Below are positions 372-10,375 of a DNA stretch of 10,375 nucleotides, in pieces (within the stretch, counting starts at the first letter, position 1; the number at the start of each line of letters is the position of its first letter). This DNA comes from an archaeon (GTDB lineage Archaea > Iainarchaeota > Iainarchaeia > Iainarchaeales > 1-14-0-10-31-34), in the NCBI GenBank assembly GCA_043815885.1, contig JBDRIL010000001.1:1-10375 (forward strand), in the 5' to 3' direction. The notes under the pieces were generated by a model. That model did not search any database and was not told where the DNA came from. It saw only the letters and a list, made by a program, of their open reading frames with translations. A program made the position numbers and the translations under genes.

Positions 372-379
372 TATTTAAA
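372..379 (-). promoter_or_regulatory. TATA box for the zinc-finger gene, overlapping the polC stop codon
   Basis: TTTAAATA starting 31 nt before ATG 348. No SD is visible, which fits a leaderless or short-leader transcript. Confidence 0.55.
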
Positions 380-3300
380 CATATTCGTAAAGCGATTTCT
401 GCTCTACTTTTTCGTTTGAAAAAATCGATGCAATCTCTTTTTCAGCCAAATCAATTCTCTGCTTTAAGTAATTACTTAATTCATATTTTTCTATCAGCAT
501 TCTCGCAATCTTCAGGTATTTCTTTACTGAACCTTCTGCAATAGTTAAAATTAAATTCCCGCCACACTTAGTGCATTTCCCGATTAATGGAACCCTCCTG
601 TATTTGGCGTTGCAGGAGGTACATCTGAAATTCTGTTTGCTGAATGATCTGGCATTCCCGATGATGTCTGGAAGAAAATGAGAAAGAATTACTCTTTCCA
701 ATGCATCTTTTTTATCTACTGCCGCAATCTTTTCCTGCAGTATTGCCTGCCTTAAAACTTTTTCTTCCATTGTCTTTAGCTGAACGTATCTGCTTATCTT
801 TGGCCCTAAATCAAATGTTTCAGTTGAATGAGTGAAATTAAGTTCAGTGTACTGGTCCTTTCTCCCCAGCTTCTCTTTCACTGTTGGAACAAATTTAAGG
901 TGGGGTTCACTTAACTCTAATGTTTTTTCATAGAACTCCAATGGAAACTCAGCACATGTTTCCATTTCATATACTTCATTATCTATTTCGCTTGGATTCA
1001 ATGCAACAGTAAAAACCAATGGAGCATCCATTCTTCCGCCCCTGCTTTCAGGCAGGTAATGCTCAGAGAAATTAATTAATGGATCCAACAACAACATTAT
1101 TGAATCCTGGTCCCCGTCGCAGTCATAGACGGCTAAATTTCCGAATCCTCCAATATAAGATTTGTTTCCTTCAACCATTAAATCATAAACATATTTTTCC
1201 TTGTTTTTTATTTTCTTGATTTCCTTAATTTCATCTAAAACGAATTTCCCTATTTTTTTGATTCTTTTACCTCTAATTTGTTTCTCTTTAAGCAATTTAA
1301 TTAATTTTCTTTTTCTATTTCCTATTAATCCATTCCTGATTCTATTCAAGTCTGTTGAATAAATTCTTATTCCACAAGATTTTATTTTTTTCTTTATCCC
1401 CTTTTTCTCATAGAATTTTTTCACATAACCCGAACTGATTTCCCTTTCTTTTTCTTCAAAGAAATGAGGGAATATCCCAAGGCGATTACATAACAACCCA
1501 ATTCCATTTGTCAATCCTTCATTCACTGAAGAGGTTTTTACACAATTATAATCAACAGAACCATCCCCAGTTATGTATAATCCAAGAGCTCCCTCCACAC
1601 ATTTTTTATTTGATGACAAAACTTGAGATGGAACCTGCTTATTTTTTGCATTTGTTCCCGCACTCAGCATTTCTTTAAAGAAATCATAATAAACTCTTCC
1701 GCTCAGTGTAAGGTACTCTAAATCACCATCTTTCTTGATTGTAGCTTCTCTGCAAAAGACCCTTTTTATATTTTCTTTTATTCTGTTTGTGATTTCTTTT
1801 TCTGCTGAAACCATATTTACTTGATAAACAAATTTTTTTCTCTTTTGGTTATCTGTTGTCCTGCAATATCCTTCAGCTAAATAATGCCCAATAATTTCCC
1901 CCACTTCTTTGTTTAATTCAATTGTCGTCGGAATCGTGCTTTTTTGTTTGTTGTAACCAATTAATAGATTCTTAAAATCAAAGGCATTCTTCCCCATTTT
2001 ATTAATTATTTTTTCAAATAAGTCTAATGGAATTGAATCAAAATCAATTGCTGTGTGAATTGCCTTTCCTTGCTTATATGGATCCTTCAAATAATCTCTG
2101 TAATCCAACTTTTCAGCAACTTTCCAGCAACCACCATTCTTTTTTACCCATTCTTTTACTTCTTTTTTTGCGTTATGTATCCTCAGTTTTTGTTTAATTT
2201 CTTCTGGTTTTTTTAAGTAGAATTCTAAGACATCAATTTTTTTGGTTTCCTTTTCAGGTTTGAATTCTAATAAACTTAAAAGTTTGTCTCCCACTTTCAG
2301 GTTTCCAACTTTGTTTTTTCCAACTTTATTTTTTTCGTGAATCAGCATTTGATGATCCTTAGTTGCAGTAATTTTTCTTCCATACTTCGTTTTTATTTCA
2401 TATAATTCTTTTGGCGCTTTTTGTTTAAGCAAAGCAGTTACCCTTTCCCTTTTCAATTCTCCTTTTTTATTTATTGCATAAGTGTGGGTGTCCTCTAGTG
2501 GGATTTCTTCACATGTCCCGCCTTTATCTAATGAGCCAATCTCAGCCAAATGTAATCCTTGTTCTGAATTCAATAGAACTTGAGTGTTTCCTGTCAAACA
2601 ATTTCTCCTTTTGCACATTATAAAATAAGGATGCCCCCATCCAACTCTTGATTTAGTGTAGCCAATCACTCTTCCGACAATTCCTGCGGAAGTGTGTGGA
2701 GCAAGACTAATAACTAATTCTCCGATTAAATCCTCTTTTATTTTTGCATTATAGAAGGCTTTCATTCCATAAAATCTTTCAAGTAATTCATCAATGAATT
2801 TACTTACATTCACTAACCATTCTCCTGCCCCTTCATTTACTATTATGTCCTGGGGGAATAATTCAACCACTTGTTCTTCTTTCACTAATTCCTTTCCTTT
2901 AGCGTCTTTCCTGTAACCCAATTCCCTTGCTTTTTTTACACTCATTCCAATCTCTTTTGGCTTGAAATGAGTTATTGGGGCATTAAGTAATTCAAATCTT
3001 GAAGTAGCGTCCCTGAATATATGCACGTTGTGTTTTGCTCTAAGGATTCCTTTTTCTAATGGCTCTGCTTCCTTTGATTCATTGATTAATCCCTTTACTC
3101 CCTTCACTATTTCAGGCATCTTTACCTTTAATTTTTTCAGTGCCTTCTGGCTTAATTTCTCTAAATCGATTTCCTGTTCTTCAAATCCTTTTGTGTCTCC
3201 ATTGCATTTCTCGCATTTTTCTTTTTCAGTCAGCCTTCCGCAATTAATGCACTTGTTTACTTTAATGGTTTTTTCTCCGCACTCAGTACACACAGGCAGA

Positions 3301-5273
3301 AAACTTTTCTTATTGCATTTAAGGCATTTATATAATCCAATTTCTGCCTTTATTGGCTTTCTTTCACTGGAAGAAGATTCAATTGCTTTGTTAATGCTTC
3401 TGGTGTTTCCTCCGCTCAATCCAATTGGAAATAAAATATGGGGGTTTCCTTTCATTTCCCTGGGTTTTGCTTGTTCTGGTCTCCCCATCCTCGCCCCAAT
3501 AAATGTTCCGGCTTTATCCTTTATTTTCATTCCACTGAATTCACTTAAAACATCCAAAATATTCCCGTTTATTTCTTTTGGAACTTCTTTTGTGCTTAAT
3601 GTCCCAATGGTTTTAAGGAAAGAATAAGCAAACTCTTCTCCAACAATAATCCTTCCTTTCTCTAATTTGTGGGGTAATCCAATTCTCTCAAGCAATTCCT
3701 TTACTTTCTCCTTGTCTTCAAATTTTACTCCAACTATTTTTTCTTTTTCAAATACCTTTTCTGCCTTCCTTGCTTCCTTCATTAATTCAATTAATTCCTT
3801 TTCTTTCAGTGCAGTGTAAAAATGAAGGTATTTTGGATGCAATGGAACCTTTAACTGTAAACTCAATTCCACTGCTTCAAACTGATCCATGGAATTAATT
3901 TTCTCCAACAACTCTTCCCTCTTTTTTTCATTTAATTTTTTCCCTTTTTCCAGTGCTTTCTCCAACTCCAGTTTATACCATTCCTCCACGTAAGGAGAAG
4001 GAACTAAGGGATGGGCTGTCTTCCTGAAATCCCCTACAGTAATCAGTATGTCTCCTAAAAAAAGTATTTTTTTTATTCTTCGCTTTACTTTTTCTGCTTC
4101 CTCTATTGAATTAAGCTTTATTACTTCTCCATCTTCAAGTAATATTATTGGGCCGTCAATTGAATCACATGGAAAGAGCTGGGCTGCCTTTCCAGGGCGT
4201 TCAATCCTTATGTGTGTTCCTACTGCAATGAATTCATCCAATACAATCATTGTTGCTGGATTAATTCCTTTCCCCATTATTCCTGTATTCCTGCTTCTTC
4301 CATACCTTATCCTGAATCCCCCGTACTTCATTGGATATGCAAGGAGTGGCCTTCCTGCAGCAATCCTGTCAAGATACTTGTCTATTGGCTTTAATTCATT
4401 CTTTGCTTCCCCTGTCTTTTTTACCTTTACAATCTTTTCAAGCCAATTCCAGTCAAGGTTTAATTCTTTTGCCCATTCCATTATCTTCATTGCTTTCAAG
4501 GCAACTCCCTCGGATATAACCAACCCCATTCCCCCCCTGATTCTGTTGGAGGGAATTCTTTCCAAGTCTCTGTGCACTGATACCTCTCTTTCCTCTGTTG
4601 GCACTCCATTAACGCACACTGGACAGCCTCTTACAATTGTCCTTATTTCTTCCTCGCTCACCATATACTGTCTTGAAATTATTTCTGTCTGGTAAATCAT
4701 TATTTCTTCTACATATCTTTCCACTTCTTCATCTGTTGGCTTGTATCTATCTATATCCAGTAACTTTCTTGCATAGTCCCCTAAAATCAATGGAAGAACT
4801 GTTGCAGAACCTCCTGCTGCTCTTATTGGTCCAGCAAAATAGACATCCACATACCTGCTTCCGTCAGGGTTCTTACTAATAATTATTTTTGGAACTCCGT
4901 CTATTGGCGCTACAACCACTCCCTCTGTCTCTATAACCAGACAAGTCTTTATTGCTTGTTCAATTCTCTCTGATTGGTTTGGGATAGAGCACCATTTCTG
5001 TTCAATTATTTCCTTGAATAATCTAAAGATAACCTTCTCCCTGTCTCCTTTTTCTTCCTTGTGTAATTCCCTGAATCTTTTTGCCACTCCTTTGGGGCCA
5101 ATTATTTCCTCTGTTCTCTCAGCCAAGTCACTTACTGGAATTGATTCAACTTCTCTGTCCACATCCAGTCCTTTTTCTCTTGCTTTTTTTGCTATGCTGA
5201 ATCTTTCATTCACTTTTTCTTTTAATTCATTGAAGTAGTTATTCACTTCTTTTGTTGCAATTAATTCACTCAA
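375..5273 (-). CDS. polC: DNA polymerase D large subunit DP2, intein-containing precursor (1632 aa; 1139 aa after splicing)
   Basis: DP2 motifs: TEGVVVAPIDG, YFAGPIRAAGG, NRIRGGMGLVISEG, GGFRIRYGRSRNTG, ERPGK, FIGARMGRPE, PLEKGILRAK, LAPHTSAG, KRRN/CDGDQD and RGGRMDAPLV. Also central CxxC zinc sites, a C-terminal CTSC...CTKC site and a terminal PIP-box-like QKSLYEYV. The TTG start overlaps the DP1 TGA stop (TTGA). Confidence 0.97.
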   Translation of the reverse strand: MSELIATKEVNNYFNELKEKVNERFSIAKKAREKGLDVDREVESIPVSDLAERTEEIIGPKGVAKRFRELHKEEKGDREKVIFRLFKEIIEQKWCSIPNQSERIEQAIKTCLVIETEGVVVAPIDGVPKIIISKNPDGSRYVDVYFAGPIRAAGGSATVLPLILGDYARKLLDIDRYKPTDEEVERYVEEIMIYQTEIISRQYMVSEEEIRTIVRGCPVCVNGVPTEEREVSVHRDLERIPSNRIRGGMGLVISEGVALKAMKIMEWAKELNLDWNWLEKIVKVKKTGEAKNELKPIDKYLDRIAAGRPLLAYPMKYGGFRIRYGRSRNTGIMGKGINPATMIVLDEFIAVGTHIRIERPGKAAQLFPCDSIDGPIILLEDGEVIKLNSIEEAEKVKRRIKKILFLGDILITVGDFRKTAHPLVPSPYVEEWYKLELEKALEKGKKLNEKKREELLEKINSMDQFEAVELSLQLKVPLHPKYLHFYTALKEKELIELMKEARKAEKVFEKEKIVGVKFEDKEKVKELLERIGLPHKLEKGRIIVGEEFAYSFLKTIGTLSTKEVPKEINGNILDVLSEFSGMKIKDKAGTFIGARMGRPEQAKPREMKGNPHILFPIGLSGGNTRSINKAIESSSSERKPIKAEIGLYKCLKCNKKSFLPVCTECGEKTIKVNKCINCGRLTEKEKCEKCNGDTKGFEEQEIDLEKLSQKALKKLKVKMPEIVKGVKGLINESKEAEPLEKGILRAKHNVHIFRDATSRFELLNAPITHFKPKEIGMSVKKARELGYRKDAKGKELVKEEQVVELFPQDIIVNEGAGEWLVNVSKFIDELLERFYGMKAFYNAKIKEDLIGELVISLAPHTSAGIVGRVIGYTKSRVGWGHPYFIMCKRRNCLTGNTQVLLNSEQGLHLAEIGSLDKGGTCEEIPLEDTHTYAINKKGELKRERVTALLKQKAPKELYEIKTKYGRKITATKDHQMLIHEKNKVGKNKVGNLKVGDKLLSLLEFKPEKETKKIDVLEFYLKKPEEIKQKLRIHNAKKEVKEWVKKNGGCWKVAEKLDYRDYLKDPYKQGKAIHTAIDFDSIPLDLFEKIINKMGKNAFDFKNLLIGYNKQKSTIPTTIELNKEVGEIIGHYLAEGYCRTTDNQKRKKFVYQVNMVSAEKEITNRIKENIKRVFCREATIKKDGDLEYLTLSGRVYYDFFKEMLSAGTNAKNKQVPSQVLSSNKKCVEGALGLYITGDGSVDYNCVKTSSVNEGLTNGIGLLCNRLGIFPHFFEEKEREISSGYVKKFYEKKGIKKKIKSCGIRIYSTDLNRIRNGLIGNRKRKLIKLLKEKQIRGKRIKKIGKFVLDEIKEIKKIKNKEKYVYDLMVEGNKSYIGGFGNLAVYDCDGDQDSIMLLLDPLINFSEHYLPESRGGRMDAPLVFTVALNPSEIDNEVYEMETCAEFPLEFYEKTLELSEPHLKFVPTVKEKLGRKDQYTELNFTHSTETFDLGPKISRYVQLKTMEEKVLRQAILQEKIAAVDKKDALERVILSHFLPDIIGNARSFSKQNFRCTSCNAKYRRVPLIGKCTKCGGNLILTIAEGSVKKYLKIARMLIEKYELSNYLKQRIDLAEKEIASIFSNEKVEQKSLYEYV
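1122..2600 (-). mobile_element. Intein with LAGLIDADG (DOD) homing endonuclease in DP2 (aa 892-1384, 493 aa)
   Basis: It interrupts the conserved KRRN|CDGD motif. Block A CLTGNTQV; block B GRKITATKDH (TxxH); endonuclease motifs IGHYLAEG and LGLYITGDG; block F YVYDLMVEG; ends LAVYD before the +1 Cys. Removing it restores a normal-length DP2. Confidence 0.95.
2303..2332. repeat. 15-bp tandem duplication within the intein (encodes KNKVG-KNKVG)
   Basis: ttccaactttgtttt (2303-2317) and ttccaactttatttt (2318-2332) match at 14 of 15 positions. A third degenerate unit (NLKVG) follows in the protein. Confidence 0.6.
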
Positions 5274-6808
5274 TCCTCTTCCCCTCTTTCCTCTGATTCC
5301 ATTTCCTCTAATACTGTTCCCTCGCCTGCTTCTTCAGTGTAAAAAGCTCTTTCATGTATTTTTCCTGTATTCAATTCCAGTATTGATGCAATTCCCGGCG
5401 TGGGAGAATGGCCTTGCGTTACCTGAAATTCTGTTTTCTTCTGCCATGTTCCAGCACAAACAACTATTGTTCCCCTGTATTCTCCGTAACCATTGTGATG
5501 TAAATCCCCCCCAAAGTACAAGTCCGGAACTTCCTTCAACAGCATGTAATCCTTTTTTTCTGGAACGTATGGACGTTTCATTCCATAGCTTGGCATTAAA
5601 TCCCTTTTCTTTATTAATTCGATTACTGCGTCTTGTGGCTTATTGTAGCTTAAATAACTCACTGAGGAATACAAATCATGCAGTGAAGGCCCGTGATAAA
5701 GCAAGCATTTTAATCCTTCCACTTCAATCCATCCAGGAGAACTCAGGAAATGAAAGTTCTTTCTCTTATACAATTCAGGCACGAATTCTTTTGGCAATGC
5801 AGGCTGTGGGTCAGCAAACCTTACTGCATCATGCTGTCCTGGGATAATTACTACTTCAATGTACTCTGGAACCTCCAGCATTATTTCTTCAAGTTTCTTG
5901 TATTGCTCATAGATGTCCCTTATATTTAATTCATTTATTTGTTTTGGGTAAATCCCTATCCCATCAACACTGTCCCCCAAAACAAACAAGTACTTTATTT
6001 TTCCAACAAACTTTCTCTCCTTTTCGCTTCCAGTGTTTCCTTTCAGCCACTCAAGAAATCTCTGGAAGGAATGCTCTAGAAATAGTTTGCTTCCCACATG
6101 AAGATCGCTTATTGCAACCAAGTTCAGTGCTCTTTCGGCTTTCTTGAATTTATTCAATGGAATTTCAGGCAATATAATTTCCTTTATTATAATCATTTCC
6201 TTTGAGATCTTTGTTCCCTTCACTCCAATAACGTAGTCAGGAAGAATTCTTTCACTCTGTTTTGTTATTCTTGCATTCTCTTTTGAAATAACCCCGATGC
6301 ATTCTCCCTCCAGATCCTCCAGCCTTAGAGCAATATTTTCATTTTTTGTCTTCCATTTATCTCTAATCATTCCAATGAATTCTATTTCTGTATTGTTTCC
6401 GGCAAGCTTCACTCTCTTTATTGGAATTGGATTGAAGTTCGGCCGTTTCTTTAAAATGGCCTCAAGTGAATTAAATTTATCCTGAAAATAAGCAATGAAA
6501 TCCTTTACCTTTCCTTCAGAGGTTGACTGATTCGTTACATTTAATTCATCCAATACCTTTATCCTTGCCTCAACTTCCCTTGCGATAGGATTAAATCCTT
6601 TCTTTTTTATTATTACTTCTTTTGGTTTGGATTCATTTAATTTTTTTTCTATTGATTTCCTTGATAAAACCATTTCTTTATTCAAGGCCAATTCATCTAT
6701 AACCTTCCTGTAATCCTTTGCTCCTTCAAGCAACCCTATTGCATTTGGTTCTATCACTACATTCTTTTCTCCGGCATAATCTATTATTTTCTTTCTCTTT
6801 TCTTCCAT
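5270..6808 (-). CDS. polB: DNA polymerase D small subunit DP1 (OB-fold plus calcineurin-like 3'-5' exonuclease domain)
   Basis: OB-fold segment (IGMIRDKWKTKN...LEDLEG). Phosphoesterase motifs ISDLHVGS, GDSVDGIGIYP, PGQHDA, LYHG and GDLHH, plus GTWQKKTEFQ...PTPG. Lies directly upstream of DP2 with a 4-nt overlap. Confidence 0.96.
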   Translation of the reverse strand: MEEKRKKIIDYAGEKNVVIEPNAIGLLEGAKDYRKVIDELALNKEMVLSRKSIEKKLNESKPKEVIIKKKGFNPIAREVEARIKVLDELNVTNQSTSEGKVKDFIAYFQDKFNSLEAILKKRPNFNPIPIKRVKLAGNNTEIEFIGMIRDKWKTKNENIALRLEDLEGECIGVISKENARITKQSERILPDYVIGVKGTKISKEMIIIKEIILPEIPLNKFKKAERALNLVAISDLHVGSKLFLEHSFQRFLEWLKGNTGSEKERKFVGKIKYLFVLGDSVDGIGIYPKQINELNIRDIYEQYKKLEEIMLEVPEYIEVVIIPGQHDAVRFADPQPALPKEFVPELYKRKNFHFLSSPGWIEVEGLKCLLYHGPSLHDLYSSVSYLSYNKPQDAVIELIKKRDLMPSYGMKRPYVPEKKDYMLLKEVPDLYFGGDLHHNGYGEYRGTIVVCAGTWQKKTEFQVTQGHSPTPGIASILELNTGKIHERAFYTEEAGEGTVLEEMESEERGEED

Positions 6809-8179: not shown

Positions 8180-9133
8180 TTAGCCGCTCCCACCTACACA
8201 CAAGGGTTTACATAAGCCAATGCTTGAACCATCGGCACAACATCCTGTCCCACCAGGGCAAATGCAACCCTCAGTCTCACCACAAGTGCATCCAACAAAA
8301 GAAGGGTTTCCTGGATCAGAATAATCATATTCCAAAGTACACGCAGAACCTGGTTCTGCGATAATGTTTCCACAGGAACCCCCAGTGTAAACCCATTCAG
8401 AGGCTGAGTCTTCTCTTCCTACTGCATCAGTTACAGTCAGTGTCACTGTTTTCATTACATAGCCTGAATATACATGTGGTGGCGGGTCTTTTTCATCCGA
8501 AGTTGTCCCGTCCCCAAAAATCCATTCATTTGCAACTATCTCCTCTGCAGTTTTATATGATTGATTAGTAAAATTAATTGTTTTTCTAGGAGGATCGCCA
8601 CCATCATGCACCCAATCAAATGCCGCTACAGGATAAAAATCAATATCAATTGTTTTTTTTGCTGTGTTTTTTCCTCCCTCGTTGTCAGTAACAGTTAATG
8701 TCACCAGATAAGGAATGTTTTGAGTGAATTCATGTGTTGGGTTTGAGAGTGTTGAAGTTCCTCCATCTCCGAAATTCCAGCTCCAACTATCAATGCTTCC
8801 ATTTGGGGTAGTTGAGGTATCAGTGAATTCTACTTCAATTGGTGCGGGGCCTCCACTATCCCCAATACTTGTCTCAAAATTCGCTTTTGGTCCTTCTGCT
8901 TTGCCTATTTCTTCTTCAAATAATCCTTTTCCTTTATTTACTGAATTAGTTCCTGTTTCTCCGATTGAAGCCATTATAGCCACAGATACAGCCACAAGTA
9001 TCAGTACCCCTCCAATTATTATAAGATACTCTAATCCTCCTTGTCCTTTTTCATTGTGTGCCTGTGGCATACAATGTTTTTTTGATAAAACTTTTAATAA
9101 AAGTTTTTTTTCCTTCATTTCCATTCCTTCCAT
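8180..9133 (-). CDS. Class III signal peptide (type IV pilin-like) protein with two PKD domains and a C-terminal 10-Cys domain
   Basis: KG|QGGLEYLIIIGGVLILVAVSVAIM; PKD cores WSWNFGDG and WIFGDG, each followed by VTLTVTD; Cys-rich tail at 8180-8374. The start could also be ATG 9124, 9118 or 9070. Confidence 0.88.
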   Translation of the reverse strand: MEGMEMKEKKLLLKVLSKKHCMPQAHNEKGQGGLEYLIIIGGVLILVAVSVAIMASIGETGTNSVNKGKGLFEEEIGKAEGPKANFETSIGDSGGPAPIEVEFTDTSTTPNGSIDSWSWNFGDGGTSTLSNPTHEFTQNIPYLVTLTVTDNEGGKNTAKKTIDIDFYPVAAFDWVHDGGDPPRKTINFTNQSYKTAEEIVANEWIFGDGTTSDEKDPPPHVYSGYVMKTVTLTVTDAVGREDSASEWVYTGGSCGNIIAEPGSACTLEYDYSDPGNPSFVGCTCGETEGCICPGGTGCCADGSSIGLCKPLCVGGSG

Positions 9134-9153
9134 TAATAGATAGTTTTTCTTTA

Positions 9154-9161
9154 TTTATAAA
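9154..9161 (-). promoter_or_regulatory. TATA box for the 8180-9133 gene
   Basis: TTTATAAA starting 28 nt before ATG 9133, preceded by purine-rich GAAGGAATAAA (BRE-like). Confidence 0.65.
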
Positions 9162-9176
9162 TTTATTCCTTCAGTT

Positions 9177-9611
9177 TTAAGAAGGAGCAACTGTAATCAA
9201 TTTCATTGCAGTGTGTGTTCTGGAGTCGTCATCTGTATGCCATGCAGTTAATTCTACCCTGAATTCCCCGCAGGAAGTGTAATTGTGTGTTTCTTCAAAT
9301 GCAATTGATATAGGGCTTCCATCCCCATAATTCCATTCATAGCTGTTTGCTCTTTCTGATTTATTTGTAAAGGTAACCTCAGCTGAAACAGATTCACAAT
9401 TAACTGAAAAACTCACAGGGCTTGCAGTAAACCTTGCCATTGGCCCTAATAGAGTGTCCAAATCTTCTTCGAATAATTCTCCTCCCTCATTTACTCTGTT
9501 TTTTCCTGCCTCTCCCAGGGAAGTCATTACCACTATTGCTACAGCTATTAATAGTATTACTCCTCCAAGCAACAGCAAGTACTCCAGTCCTGTTTGCCCT
9601 CTATTATTCAT
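9177..9611 (-). CDS. Class III signal peptide (type IV pilin-like) protein with one PKD domain
   Basis: MNNRG|QTGLEYLLLLGGVILLIAVAIVVM; PKD motifs FTNKS...YEWNYGDG...HNY...VELTA; two Cys residues that could form a disulfide. Confidence 0.9.
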   Translation of the reverse strand: MNNRGQTGLEYLLLLGGVILLIAVAIVVMTSLGEAGKNRVNEGGELFEEDLDTLLGPMARFTASPVSFSVNCESVSAEVTFTNKSERANSYEWNYGDGSPISIAFEETHNYTSCGEFRVELTAWHTDDDSRTHTAMKLITVAPS

Positions 9612-9637
9612 TTCAATAAACTAATTAGTTTTTTCTG

Positions 9638-9645
9638 TTAATAAA
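9638..9645 (-). promoter_or_regulatory. TATA box for the 9177-9611 gene
   Basis: TTTATTAA starting 34 nt before ATG 9611, in the same AATA-NN context as the other promoters. Followed by a 14-bp palindrome at 9618-9631. Confidence 0.55.
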
Positions 9646-9669
9646 CTTATTGGAAAATGAATAAATCAA

Positions 9670-10375
9670 TCAGTCCGAAATAATTGTGCAACTCTGGTAA
9701 GTCGCAATGTCTGCTGGGATACATTCTCCAGGAGTTTCAGTATCAAGTGCACAGCAAATTGACCCTGCACCAAAACGACTGCAGTCCTCGCATTCAGTTC
9801 TCTCTGCCAAAAAACACAAACACCCAGTAGCTTCTACTGGAGCATCTGGATCACTGAAATCATATTCCAGTCCACATGCATCAGTTGGTTCTGCTATTCC
9901 ATTCCCGCACACTCCCAGAACACGAACATTTCCTGTAGTGGTGGATTCTCCTCCTCTCTTGTCGTTTACTGTAAGTATTACTTCTATTCCGCCTTCATAA
10001 TAGTCATCGTATTGGTGCACTGGATTTTGTTCTGTTGAATTTACATCATCTCCAAAATCCCAGTTCCATTCAATTATTGCGTCATCCAAATCCTTTTTGT
10101 CTGGGGAACCTGAATTAGAGTCATCAAAGAAATTAATTGTTTTAATTGCACTCAATTCATGTCTATAACTAAAGTTTGCATCAGGAGGCGTGTCTGGAGG
10201 AATAATGCTGATTAATTCATCTGCATAACTCTTTCTTCCATCATTATCTGTTACTTTTAGTATTGCCAAAAATCTTCCATATTCAGTGTATTGGTAGGTT
10301 GTATCTCCTGGCGCGGCATTTATTATTTCTGTTTCTCCGTCTCCAAAGTCCCATTCCCATTCAACAATATTTGCT
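9670..10375 (-). CDS. PKD-domain surface protein (at least two PKD domains) with a C-terminal 10-Cys domain; 5'-partial
   Basis: The frame stays open past the ORF-track TTG (10269) to the window edge: ANIVEWEWDFGDGETEIINAAPGDTTYQYTEYGRFLAILKVTDNDG. A second PKD core is WNWDFGDD. The Cys tail at 9670-9909 is homologous to that of 8180-9133. Confidence 0.88.
   Translation of the reverse strand, partial: ANIVEWEWDFGDGETEIINAAPGDTTYQYTEYGRFLAILKVTDNDGRKSYADELISIIPPDTPPDANFSYRHELSAIKTINFFDDSNSGSPDKKDLDDAIIEWNWDFGDDVNSTEQNPVHQYDDYYEGGIEVILTVNDKRGGESTTTGNVRVLGVCGNGIAEPTDACGLEYDFSDPDAPVEATGCLCFLAERTECEDCSRFGAGSICCALDTETPGECIPADIATYQSCTIISD

Follow-up and report, generated by a model that had tools for sequence, protein, structure and literature searches.

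An intein that closes in Tyr-Asp, directly before the catalytic aspartates of a replicative polymerase subunit and with neither of the two histidines usually found in the C-terminal splicing blocks, raises the question of how—or whether—it leaves its host protein. Such an intein lies in the gene for the large subunit (DP2) of PolD in the window, the whole stretch of 10,375 nucleotides of archaeal DNA analyzed here. An earlier note on this DNA had placed it at the catalytic KRRN/CDGD site of DP2 (a slash marks the splice junction here and below), and both the translation and the letters of the junction bear that out. The reading favored here, to which we give a probability of roughly 0.7, is that the insert works as a class-1 intein, that its nested LAGLIDADG homing endonuclease looks to be still live, and that the terminal Asp would cyclize in place of Asn; it is drawn from sequence and its comparison with relatives.

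The intein and its host gene

The genome holds one copy of the DP2 gene. Its product matches the Pfam families PolC_DP2_N, PolC_DP2_central and PolC_DP2_cat (E 3e-96 to 9e-121), exceeds the curated cut-offs of the NCBIfam equivalog profiles PRK04023 (1405 bits; cut-off 1269) and TIGR00354 (1295 bits; cut-off 702), and carries the catalytic acidic motif CDGDQD after the intein. The neighboring DP1 gene is intact, with matches to DNA_pol_E_B (E 1.2e-16) and Metallophos (E 4e-8). The genome also contains a PolB gene. Coordinates of both PolD genes, and of the intein and its parts, are collected in Table 1. On the minus strand, the N-terminal junction of the intein reads KRRN/CLTGNT in translation and the C-terminal junction reads GTC TAT GAC / TGC GAC GGG GAC CAG GAT. 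The earlier note quoted letters of this strand, that is, the reverse complement of the window, with the right coordinates and the strand left unstated.

Table 1. Features of the DP2 locus, in window coordinates.
Feature	Position	Strand	Remarks
DP2 (PolD large subunit) gene	375..5273	-	from ORF list and translation; 1632 codons and stop, one intein inside
N-extein, DP2 residues 1-891	2601..5273	-	ends ...HPYFIMCKRRN
DP2 intein, 493 residues (DP2 892-1384)	1122..2600	-	HINT splicing domain with nested LAGLIDADG homing endonuclease
Cys1 (TGT), step-1 nucleophile	2598..2600	-	invariant in 17 of 17 aligned relatives
Block B Thr-Lys-Asp-His	2352..2363	-	Thr B:7 at 2361-2363, His B:10 at 2352-2354
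First LAGLIDADG motif, IIGHYLAEGY	1866..1895	-	acidic residue kept (alignment of 17 relatives)
Second LAGLIDADG motif, ALGLYITGDGS	1557..1589	-	Asp invariant in 17 of 17
Block F, YVYDLMVEGNKSY	1155..1193	-	Asp F:4 at 1182-1184; Lys at usual His position, 1161-1163
Block G, GNLAVYD	1122..1142	-	Tyr at 1125-1127 (TAT), terminal Asp at 1122-1124 (GAC)
C-extein, DP2 residues 1385-1632 and stop	375..1121	-	second PolC_DP2_cat match at 759-1124
C-extein start, CDGDQD	1104..1121	-	Cys+1 at 1119-1121 and DP2 catalytic acidic motif
DP1 (PolD small subunit) gene	5270..6808	-	last 4 bases overlap DP2 start

Profile searches recognize both parts of the insert. The splicing domain matches Pfam Intein_splicing (PF14890; E 1.6e-16, 61 bits against a cut-off of 35.8) and TIGR01445 intein_Nterm (47.3 bits; cut-off 24.5), and the endonuclease matches LAGLIDADG_3 (PF14528; 24.6 bits; cut-off 22.5). 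An AlphaFold2 model of the intein (mean pLDDT 89.6, pTM 0.89) returned the intein homing endonucleases 2cw7, 7qsu and 1dq3 as its top Foldseek matches, and I-DmoI was also recovered. Two motifs with their acidic residues, together with the predicted endonuclease fold, are the features expected of a LAGLIDADG member.

Most of what characterizes a class-1 intein is likewise present: Cys1, Cys+1, a block B Thr-x-x-His, the F:4 Asp, and the HINT fold and profile. Like Cys1, the Cys+1, the block B Thr and the F:4 Asp do not vary among the 17 aligned relatives; the block B His is replaced by Gln in two of them (L014 and L017). Two class-1 features are absent, as the earlier note had observed. A Lys, seven residues past the F:4 Asp, occupies the position of the block-F His, and a Tyr that of the penultimate (G:6) His. 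The terminal residue (G:7) agrees with class 1 only by way of the accepted variants Gln, Asp and Glu, not as Asn; it is a natural Asp at the C-terminus with a nucleophile at +1, the mark of an Asp-ending intein.

Support for the Tyr-Asp end and its spread at the DP2 site

The terminal codon, GAC, lies one transition away from AAC, and the earlier note had cautioned that the unusual end might be a simple error. On this account Tyr-Asp would come from sequencing or assembly, or from a private AAC-to-GAC mutation in one genome. Some features of the neighborhood are consistent with such a flaw: Logan contigs are broken at 1263-1276 (a stretch that no Logan contig of runs X1 or X2 covers) and tangled at 1174-1222, and a public partial DP2 (P0002) equals the window up to ...KLIKLLK and then diverges from it. 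Through this gap region, however, the window is collinear with 16 relatives and the tail of P0002 is not. The junction itself was checked against assembled Logan contigs, not raw reads. A contig from run X1—which may be the sample from which the window was assembled—spans 1103-1262 with 0 differences, and a contig from run X2, which belongs to a separate study, spans 937-1235 with 1 difference, outside 1119-1130. Two runs from two studies therefore give the same letters at 1119-1130, and both agree with the window over the Tyr and Asp codons (1122-1127), where sequence support had been in question. The X2 difference (1162 T>A, depth 2) changes the block-F Lys codon from AAA to ATA (Ile) on the coding strand; either an error or a variant that the intein tolerates may lie behind it. 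Runs X3 and X4 held diverged pieces only, none of them across 1108-1141, and are uninformative on the junction. Conservation also speaks against an error: Tyr-Asp is kept in 18 related loci, with both Asp codons in use (GAC in 9, GAT in 9) and both Tyr codons as well (TAT in 12, TAC in 6), and Asp is terminal in all 35 inteins of the clade described below. An error or private mutation is effectively refuted as the source of the Tyr-Asp end, and is scarcely credible for the window.

The earlier note had also considered a natural C-terminal Asp very rare, a view that does not survive a tabulation of last residues. Among 80 non-identical inteins at the DP2 site—a sample that was seeded with the window's own intein and is biased accordingly—the terminal residue is Asp in 35, Asn in 24, Gln in 18 and Arg in 3; about 88 RNA-polymerase inteins among the search matches also end in Asp. 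The last two residues of the 35 Asp-enders are YD (32), ID (2) or FD (1). These inteins form one side of a single branch (SH-aLRT 100) with no reversion inside, and on the same tree Asn and Gln need 6 changes each. The block-F Lys is found in 35 of 35, at +7 in 31 and, after a one-residue insertion, at +8 in 4. The 45 non-Asp inteins at the site carry Lys at this position in 1 case and His in 34, so that His is what most Asn- or Gln-ending inteins have there. Because the pairing of Lys with Asp within DP2 is confined to one clade, it is a single evolutionary event and not statistical evidence of coupling.

Tyr and the missing block-F His had been put forward as independent oddities. Both are real, but the missing block-F His weighs little as an oddity. 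Four other inteins of the same genome end canonically (VHN/T, VHN/T, FHN/T and VHN/T), and all four of these His-Asn inteins are without a block-F His. Most DP2-site inteins also do without a penultimate His, which just 7 of the 80 possess.

Whether this ending belongs to a working intein is a separate matter. Three residues commonly held to catalyze step 3 have given way to others here, and PolB is present; the intein might have decayed and ceased to splice, leaving DP2 dead or in two pieces while PolB replicates the genome. The state of the locus and of its relatives makes such decay very improbable. The frame is open across 1632 codons, Cys1, the block B Thr and His, the block F Asp and Cys+1 are all intact, and DP1 adjoins in intact form. 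Median dN/dS is 0.11-0.135 over three parts, the two for splicing (N and C, about 0.13 in both) and the endonuclease; of the 15 pairs that 6 close loci give, 6-7 were usable, and the values rest on these few unsaturated pairs. This pattern of conservation is purifying selection. The ending also persists over a clade whose path lengths exceed 1 change per column and which reaches at least 20 species genomes, and two of its mini-inteins, which no longer carry the endonuclease, retain Lys with FD or YD (P0032, 196 aa; P0250, 170 aa). To this may be added that a passage of a review (PMC4031507) names a C-terminal Asp among the ends that permit splicing. The Tyr-Asp end is an old, conserved trait of an intein clade. 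It is very probable that the DP2 intein has to splice; the firmer statement of the earlier note, that it must, is one we can only infer, because a PolB gene is present and DP2 is not proven essential in the host.

Known systems and Asp ends in other hosts

The PolII (DP2) inteins of Pyrococcus abyssi, P. horikoshii and Methanoculleus marisnigri (PDB 2LCJ, 5BKH) share host protein and insertion point with the window's intein. Like it, they have Cys1 and Cys+1, belong to class 1 and end in a residue other than Asn. Their last two residues are His-Gln, however, and block F still has its His, whereas the window's intein ends in Tyr-Asp and has Lys in block F. Their C-extein is given as C-D-G-D-E-D in a section of PMC8175363, in place of CDGDQD here, and the same section describes the two Pyrococcus inteins as mini-inteins of 185 and 166 residues, whereas the window's carries a LAGLIDADG endonuclease. 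In Foldseek the intein model matches 2lcj (Pab PolII) at E 3.4e-7 and 5bkh at E 1e-6, and the sequence match to 5bkh is confined to the N-terminal part (E 8e-4). The Asp clade groups with the other DP2-site inteins, with 97 local support (FastTree). The best match among solved structures is PI-PkoII, the Pol-2 intein of Thermococcus kodakarensis (PDB 2CW7; sequence E 1.9e-15, fold E 3e-31). It has the same build of intein plus LAGLIDADG endonuclease and a similar stretch from block F to block G, ending ...FLVGFG, but its host is a family-B polymerase and the alignment ends 4 residues short of the chain end.

The Gln of the C-extein (CDGDQD, against CDGDED in Pyrococcus) was considered as a residue that might co-vary with the Asp end, and was rejected. 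Since six intein-free relatives from the phylum read CDGDQD (5) or CDGEQD (1), the Gln belongs to the host lineage. An Arg-ending intein from the same order also precedes CDGDQD, and 8 deep members of the Asp clade precede CDGDED.

Amitai, Dassa and Pietrokovski reportedly described, in 2004 (J Biol Chem 279:3121), an intein of class-1 type with Asp as its natural C-terminal residue; the example is said to be the ribonucleotide reductase intein of Carboxydothermus, whose host protein differs from DP2. In the relevant passage of PMC4031507, cyclization of Asp or Gln is credited to Amitai et al. 2004. The non-standard chemistry that the earlier note had read into the DP2 intein is, going by that passage, a variant of class-1 step 3 with Asp that was already in print. 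Both a C-terminal Asp as a published class-1 splicing variant and DP2 as an intein site are already known, the latter for a long time; the literature searches found no account of Asp-ending DP2 inteins. Atypical C-terminal residues are mentioned for some Nucleocytoviricota and Anaeramoeba inteins in a portion of PMC10710043, the one published statement found with a bearing on the RNA-polymerase inteins described next, and a term search of two of its supplementary files returned nothing on such residues.

The closest relatives outside DP2 are Asp-ending inteins in the largest subunit of RNA polymerase, of the form Ser1...Asp/Thr, which are metagenomic and in some cases labelled viral metagenome. 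They differ from the DP2 intein in having Ser1 and Thr+1 (Cys and Cys in DP2), in a penultimate residue that varies and in their host protein. At the position of the block-F His, the trigger-loop inteins (TLN/TFHxAG) have Arg in 27 and Lys in 11 of 43 cases (38 of 43 basic), and the bridge-helix inteins, a third Asp-ending lineage, have Leu in 32 and Phe in 7 of 46. A first tree of DP2 and RNA-polymerase inteins required a single change to Asp, which would have given all Asp-ending inteins a common origin; it was discarded because this outcome is forced when there are just three groups. Once 52 further inteins were included, those of the DP2 site fell together and Asp needed 3 changes (FastTree only). 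By this tree, DP2 and RNA-polymerase inteins acquired their Asp ends independently, and Asp-ending inteins would be a functional kind, not one family.

Proposed splicing mechanism, and mobility

The first two steps of splicing would use ordinary parts: Cys1, the block B Thr-x-x-His, the block F Asp and Cys+1. The Asn of step 3 would be replaced by the terminal Asp, whose carboxylate would most likely attack the scissile carbonyl to form a succinic anhydride, which would then hydrolyze back to Asp. We infer all of this—splicing, Asp cyclization and any role of Lys or Tyr—from the residues present and from what is described for other inteins. According to passages of PMC4031507, inteins that end in Asp, Gln or Glu follow the same mechanism with that residue cyclizing, some inteins can do without the block-F and penultimate His (the block-F position, F:13, being less conserved), and about 5% of functional inteins have a penultimate residue other than His. 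A carboxylate needs no His to deprotonate it, and Lys and Tyr would therefore serve other roles; they may orient or polarize the carboxylate, stabilize the oxyanion, or protonate the leaving amine. The block-F His of the Pab PolII intein (His11) is placed at a distance of 4.1 A from the terminal Gln's side chain in a section of PMC8175363, and by analogy the Lys here should therefore adjoin the Asp.

It is also possible that splicing occurs and that step 3 proceeds by another course: for example, once the branch has formed, the carboxylate of Asp may serve as general base and the scissile bond be hydrolyzed directly, or Lys may be engaged in some other covalent or electrostatic route. The discussion of Asp, Gln and Glu ends in PMC4031507, so far as the passage extends, allows other mechanisms as well, and an invariant Lys beside the terminal residue is unusual at the DP2 site. 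We regard such a course as unlikely, however: cyclization is the simplest, the side chain of Asp having the same length as that of Asn, and one Asp-ending lineage manages without a basic residue in block F.

A further proposal can be made, tentative and on balance doubtful: that Lys, Tyr and the terminal Asp are a co-adapted catalytic set, a distinct aspartate-lyase solution to step 3, and that a partly similar set of Arg or Lys with Asp arose independently in the trigger-loop inteins of RNA polymerase. Such inteins might show an unusual pH profile of splicing, because a carboxylate and an ammonium group respond to pH unlike Asn and His; this could tie maturation of the replicase to the state of the cell, or serve as a controllable tool.

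Work on step 3 of protein splicing has dealt almost exclusively with Asn-ending inteins and a few that end in Gln. The Asp clade is a large, natural and conserved set with fixed Lys and Tyr, and its mini-inteins (170 and 196 residues) would be easy to express, which makes it ready material for how inteins cleave at Asp. A last step that depends on a carboxylate may differ in its pH behavior and could be of use in protein engineering. For annotation, Tyr-Asp/Cys at the DP2 site is a true intein boundary and is not to be flagged as a defect.

A last question, which goes back to the earlier note, is whether splicing is slowed by the Asp end or made to depend on conditions, for which pH, temperature or redox may be considered, and whether the maturation of PolD, and with it replication, is gated in this way. 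Some precedents point in this direction. In passages of PMC4031507, the related Pab and M. marisnigri PolII inteins are described as slow with their native Gln, and low pH as favoring C-terminal cleavage in other inteins; in a section of PMC8175363, Cys1 and Cys+1 of the Pab PolII intein are joined in a disulfide that has to be reduced, and these two residues are present here too. The distribution of the element, however, makes such gating distinctly unlikely. In run X1, a 1394-base contig matches 1011-1121 and continues with letters that equal 2601-2630 at 29 of 30 positions, the single mismatch being synonymous. This contig is a near-identical allele missing exactly 1122-2600, that is, a presence/absence polymorphism, and it coexists with the intein-bearing allele in the same run. 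A pattern scan recovered an uninterrupted KRRNCDG in 13 of 215 genomes of the phylum. Given the intein-free allele and these uninterrupted sites, the host is not dependent on the intein. Close relatives of the intein occur in 21 of the 215 phylum genomes (the window's own counted) and, within the family, in 4 of the 8 other genomes, and this patchy distribution, with the intact endonuclease, fits a selfish element. The host itself is a small groundwater DPANN archaeon, and near-identical and related records carry the labels Micrarchaeota, Diapherotrites or Iainarchaeum.

The DP2 intein and its junction

The gene for DP2, the large subunit of PolD, is identified by the Pfam domains PolC_DP2_N, _central and _cat (E 3e-96 to 9e-121) and by the NCBIfam models PRK04023 and TIGR00354, both over their curated cut-offs. 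The 493-residue insert that interrupts it has Pfam/NCBIfam matches to the intein splicing domain, to a profile of intein N-termini and to a LAGLIDADG domain, and its junctions with the host protein read KRRN/CLTGNT at the N-terminus and GNLAVYD/CDGDQD at the C-terminus. Block B is T-K-D-H and block F is YVYDLMVEGNKSY, with a Lys seven residues past the Asp at F:4; both LAGLIDADG motifs retain their acidic residues in an alignment of relatives. The earlier note's letters for the Tyr-Asp junction, and its coordinates, are right, the letters being those of the window's reverse complement.

Features of the window, with coordinates on the forward strand
Feature	Coordinates	Strand	Remarks
DP2 gene, PolD large subunit	375-5273	minus	longest frame of the window, 1632 codons
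DP1 gene	5270-6808		directly upstream of DP2; final 4 bases overlap the DP2 start
Intein	1122-2600	minus	493 residues, DP2 residues 892-1384; sole DP2 insert
Cys1	2598-2600		
Penultimate Tyr	1125-1127		
Terminal Asp	1122-1124		
Cys+1, first C-extein residue	1119-1121		
Three adjacent PKD-domain protein genes	8180-10269	minus	two of three with class III (archaeal pilin-type) signal peptides

Support for the junction comes from Logan contigs, that is, assembled contigs rather than raw reads, of two public groundwater metagenome runs from different studies, X1 and X2, of which X1 may be the window's source sample. The X1 contig spans 1103-1262 with no differences to the window and the X2 contig spans 937-1235 with one, at 1162, so that 1119-1130 is unaltered in both. 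The difference in X2 is a T>A change that turns the otherwise invariant block-F Lys (AAA on the coding strand) into Ile (ATA); at a depth of 2, it may be an error. At 1174-1222, where an A-rich stretch and the conserved block F lie, several Logan contigs tangle, and contigs break at about 1263-1283. It is here that the public partial DP2 sequence P0002, which bears the label Candidatus Micrarchaeota archaeon, departs from the window, being identical to it through ...KLIKLLK and continuing into unrelated sequence. The window is collinear with 16 relatives through this region, and the divergence of P0002 likely stems from a chimeric join on the side of the assembly behind P0002.

An AlphaFold2 model of the intein, based on an alignment of 17 sequences, has a mean pLDDT of 89.6 and a pTM of 0.89. 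Foldseek ranks three intein homing endonucleases highest, 2cw7 (E 3e-31) ahead of 7qsu and 1dq3; mini-inteins come next, including the Pab PolII intein 2lcj (E 3.4e-7). In the latter, the distance between the block-F His and the side chain of the terminal Gln is 4.1 A (PMC8175363). The mutual placement of Lys, Tyr and Asp in the window intein is taken from homology.

Lineages of Asp-ending inteins

A search of 5.8 billion proteins with the intein region as query, and a full HMMER scan through 1.84 billion representatives, recovered numerous DP2 proteins interrupted by an intein at this insertion point; with loci added from genomes of the phylum, a set of 90 inteins at the site was extracted, 80 of them non-identical. 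The last residue is Asp in 35 of the 80 (32 Tyr-Asp, two Ile-Asp, one Phe-Asp), Asn in 24, Gln in 18 and Arg in three, shares that are skewed towards the window intein's kin because the sample was seeded with it. In an IQ-TREE tree from which the final two intein residues were left out, all 35 fall on one side of a branch with an SH-aLRT of 100, and no reversion occurs within this Asp clade; elsewhere in the tree, Asn and Gln each require six changes. Among 18 related loci with DNA, Asp is encoded by GAC (9) and GAT (9), and Tyr by TAT (12) and TAC (6); the use of both codons for each residue indicates that the residues are kept by selection on the protein. The Asp ending is therefore not private to one genome, and its description as very rare holds for the accessible literature but not for the sequence collections. 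Median dN/dS among six close loci, for which only 6-7 of 15 pairs are unsaturated, is 0.11-0.135 across the three parts of the intein (N-terminal splicing, endonuclease, C-terminal splicing).

The block-F Lys is present in every Asp-ending member, at +7 in 31 and, with a one-residue insertion, at +8 in four. At the same position, the 45 non-Asp inteins have His in 34 cases and Lys in one. Two endonuclease-less members of the Asp clade (196 and 170 residues) retain the Lys and an FD or YD ending. The Lys-Asp pairing in DP2 represents one evolutionary event, and thus carries no statistical evidence of coupling. Two loci of the clade, L014 and L017, have Gln for the block B His in the alignment (TGKQ, TPKQ) and so have none of the three histidines of block B, block F and the penultimate position; the block B His is the best conserved residue of inteins according to a review (Mills, Johnson, Perler; PMC4031507). 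Some DP2 genes of the phylum, intein-bearing or intein-free (P0010, L014, L029), read CDGEQD instead of CDGDQD, so that the second acidic residue of the DP2 catalytic motif is Glu.

Two further Asp-ending groups lie outside DP2, in genes for the largest subunit of RNA polymerase (proteins P0042-P0251), where Asp-ending inteins are common among the matches. At TLN/TFHxAG, Asp precedes 50 of 59 sites, and the block-F position of the 43 bounded inteins is Arg (27), Lys (11), Thr (3) or Leu (2); at TA[VI]K/T[AS]xTG, about 43 inteins end in Asp, with mostly Leu or Phe at block F. A basic block-F residue is thereby found in two of three Asp-ending lineages. In a FastTree tree of 221 inteins, the DP2-site inteins all group together (local support 97) and Asp/non-Asp ends require three changes; Asp ends therefore arose more than once. 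The RNA-polymerase Asp inteins have the form Ser1...x-Asp/Thr, and a second intein, ending in His-Asn, often lies three residues upstream.

Arg-ending DP2-site inteins (PR/C, IR/C, AR/C, TR/C) carry Cys at position 4 of block F (SYC...) and comprise the locus L025 (G046:C21) and the protein matches P0214, P0162, P0049, P0089, P0174, P0202 and P0219. The three for which both ends could be placed group as a separate clade (SH-aLRT 100). Arg is not known to cyclise in the manner of Asn, Gln or Asp.

Proposed splicing chemistry and the probable need to splice

The DP2 host site, the intein class and the Asp variant are already in print, the last reportedly resting on Amitai et al. 2004 together with a review. 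The review PMC4031507 includes the Asp variant of class 1 splicing, and states that an intein whose last residue is Asp, Gln or Glu cyclises that residue by the same mechanism, others being possible. PMC10710043 mentions atypical C-terminal residues for Nucleocytoviricota and Anaeramoeba inteins; a term search of two of its supplementary files returned nothing on such residues. Literature searches returned no description of a DP2 clade that ends in Asp, nor of the Lys and Tyr it carries. The Asp-ending DP2 intein is real and conserved, but no new category, and it offers a good handle for experiments.

The host genome, 1.16 Mb in 62 contigs and 91.7% complete, contains four other LAGLIDADG inteins, on contigs C13, C10, C29 and C12 (L002-L005), whose hosts, by reading of the translations, appear to be a secretion-type ATPase, a CDC48-type ATPase, an anaerobic ribonucleotide reductase and a fourth protein. 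Each of the four ends His-Asn/Thr and none has His at the block-F position; a missing block-F His alone, which the earlier note had counted as an oddity, is therefore unremarkable. The penultimate His occurs in just seven of the 80 DP2-site inteins.

Steps 1 and 2 of splicing would proceed with ordinary parts: Cys1, the block B Thr and His, the block F Asp and Cys+1. Step 3, the resolution of the branched intermediate by cyclisation of the last residue, would yield a succinic anhydride, hydrolysing back to Asp. According to PMC4031507, the block-F His probably deprotonates the amide of Asn, and block-F and penultimate His are dispensable in some inteins. An Asp carboxylate requires no deprotonation, and so the fixed Lys and Tyr would serve otherwise: they may keep the carboxylate in place and polarise it, stabilise the oxyanion, or give a proton to the leaving amine. 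That the intein must splice is a reasonable proposition, given a DP2 gene in one copy, an intact adjacent DP1 and the evolutionary signals, although the genome also has PolB. The further suggestion that splicing gates replication is supported by no result of the analysis.

Mobility and the intein-free allele

Of 215 genomes of the phylum, 21 (this one included) carry close relatives of the intein, as do four of eight other genomes of the family; a pattern scan found uninterrupted KRRNCDG in 13 of the 215. The named records in which the closest relatives stand are MAGs, several from groundwater, that bear the labels Candidatus Iainarchaeum, Diapherotrites and Micrarchaeota. A 1394-base contig of X1 matches 1011-1121 and continues with 30 letters equal to 2601-2630, save one synonymous change. 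It is a near-identical DP2 allele missing exactly 1122-2600, and therefore defines the intein boundaries in the DNA, to within the shared TGC. Intein-plus and intein-free alleles thus coexist in one groundwater sample, and this coexistence, together with the patchy distribution, is consistent with a selfish element dispensable to its host. Depth in X1 is 5.46 for the intein-free contig, versus 3.4-5.15 for the intein-bearing pieces.
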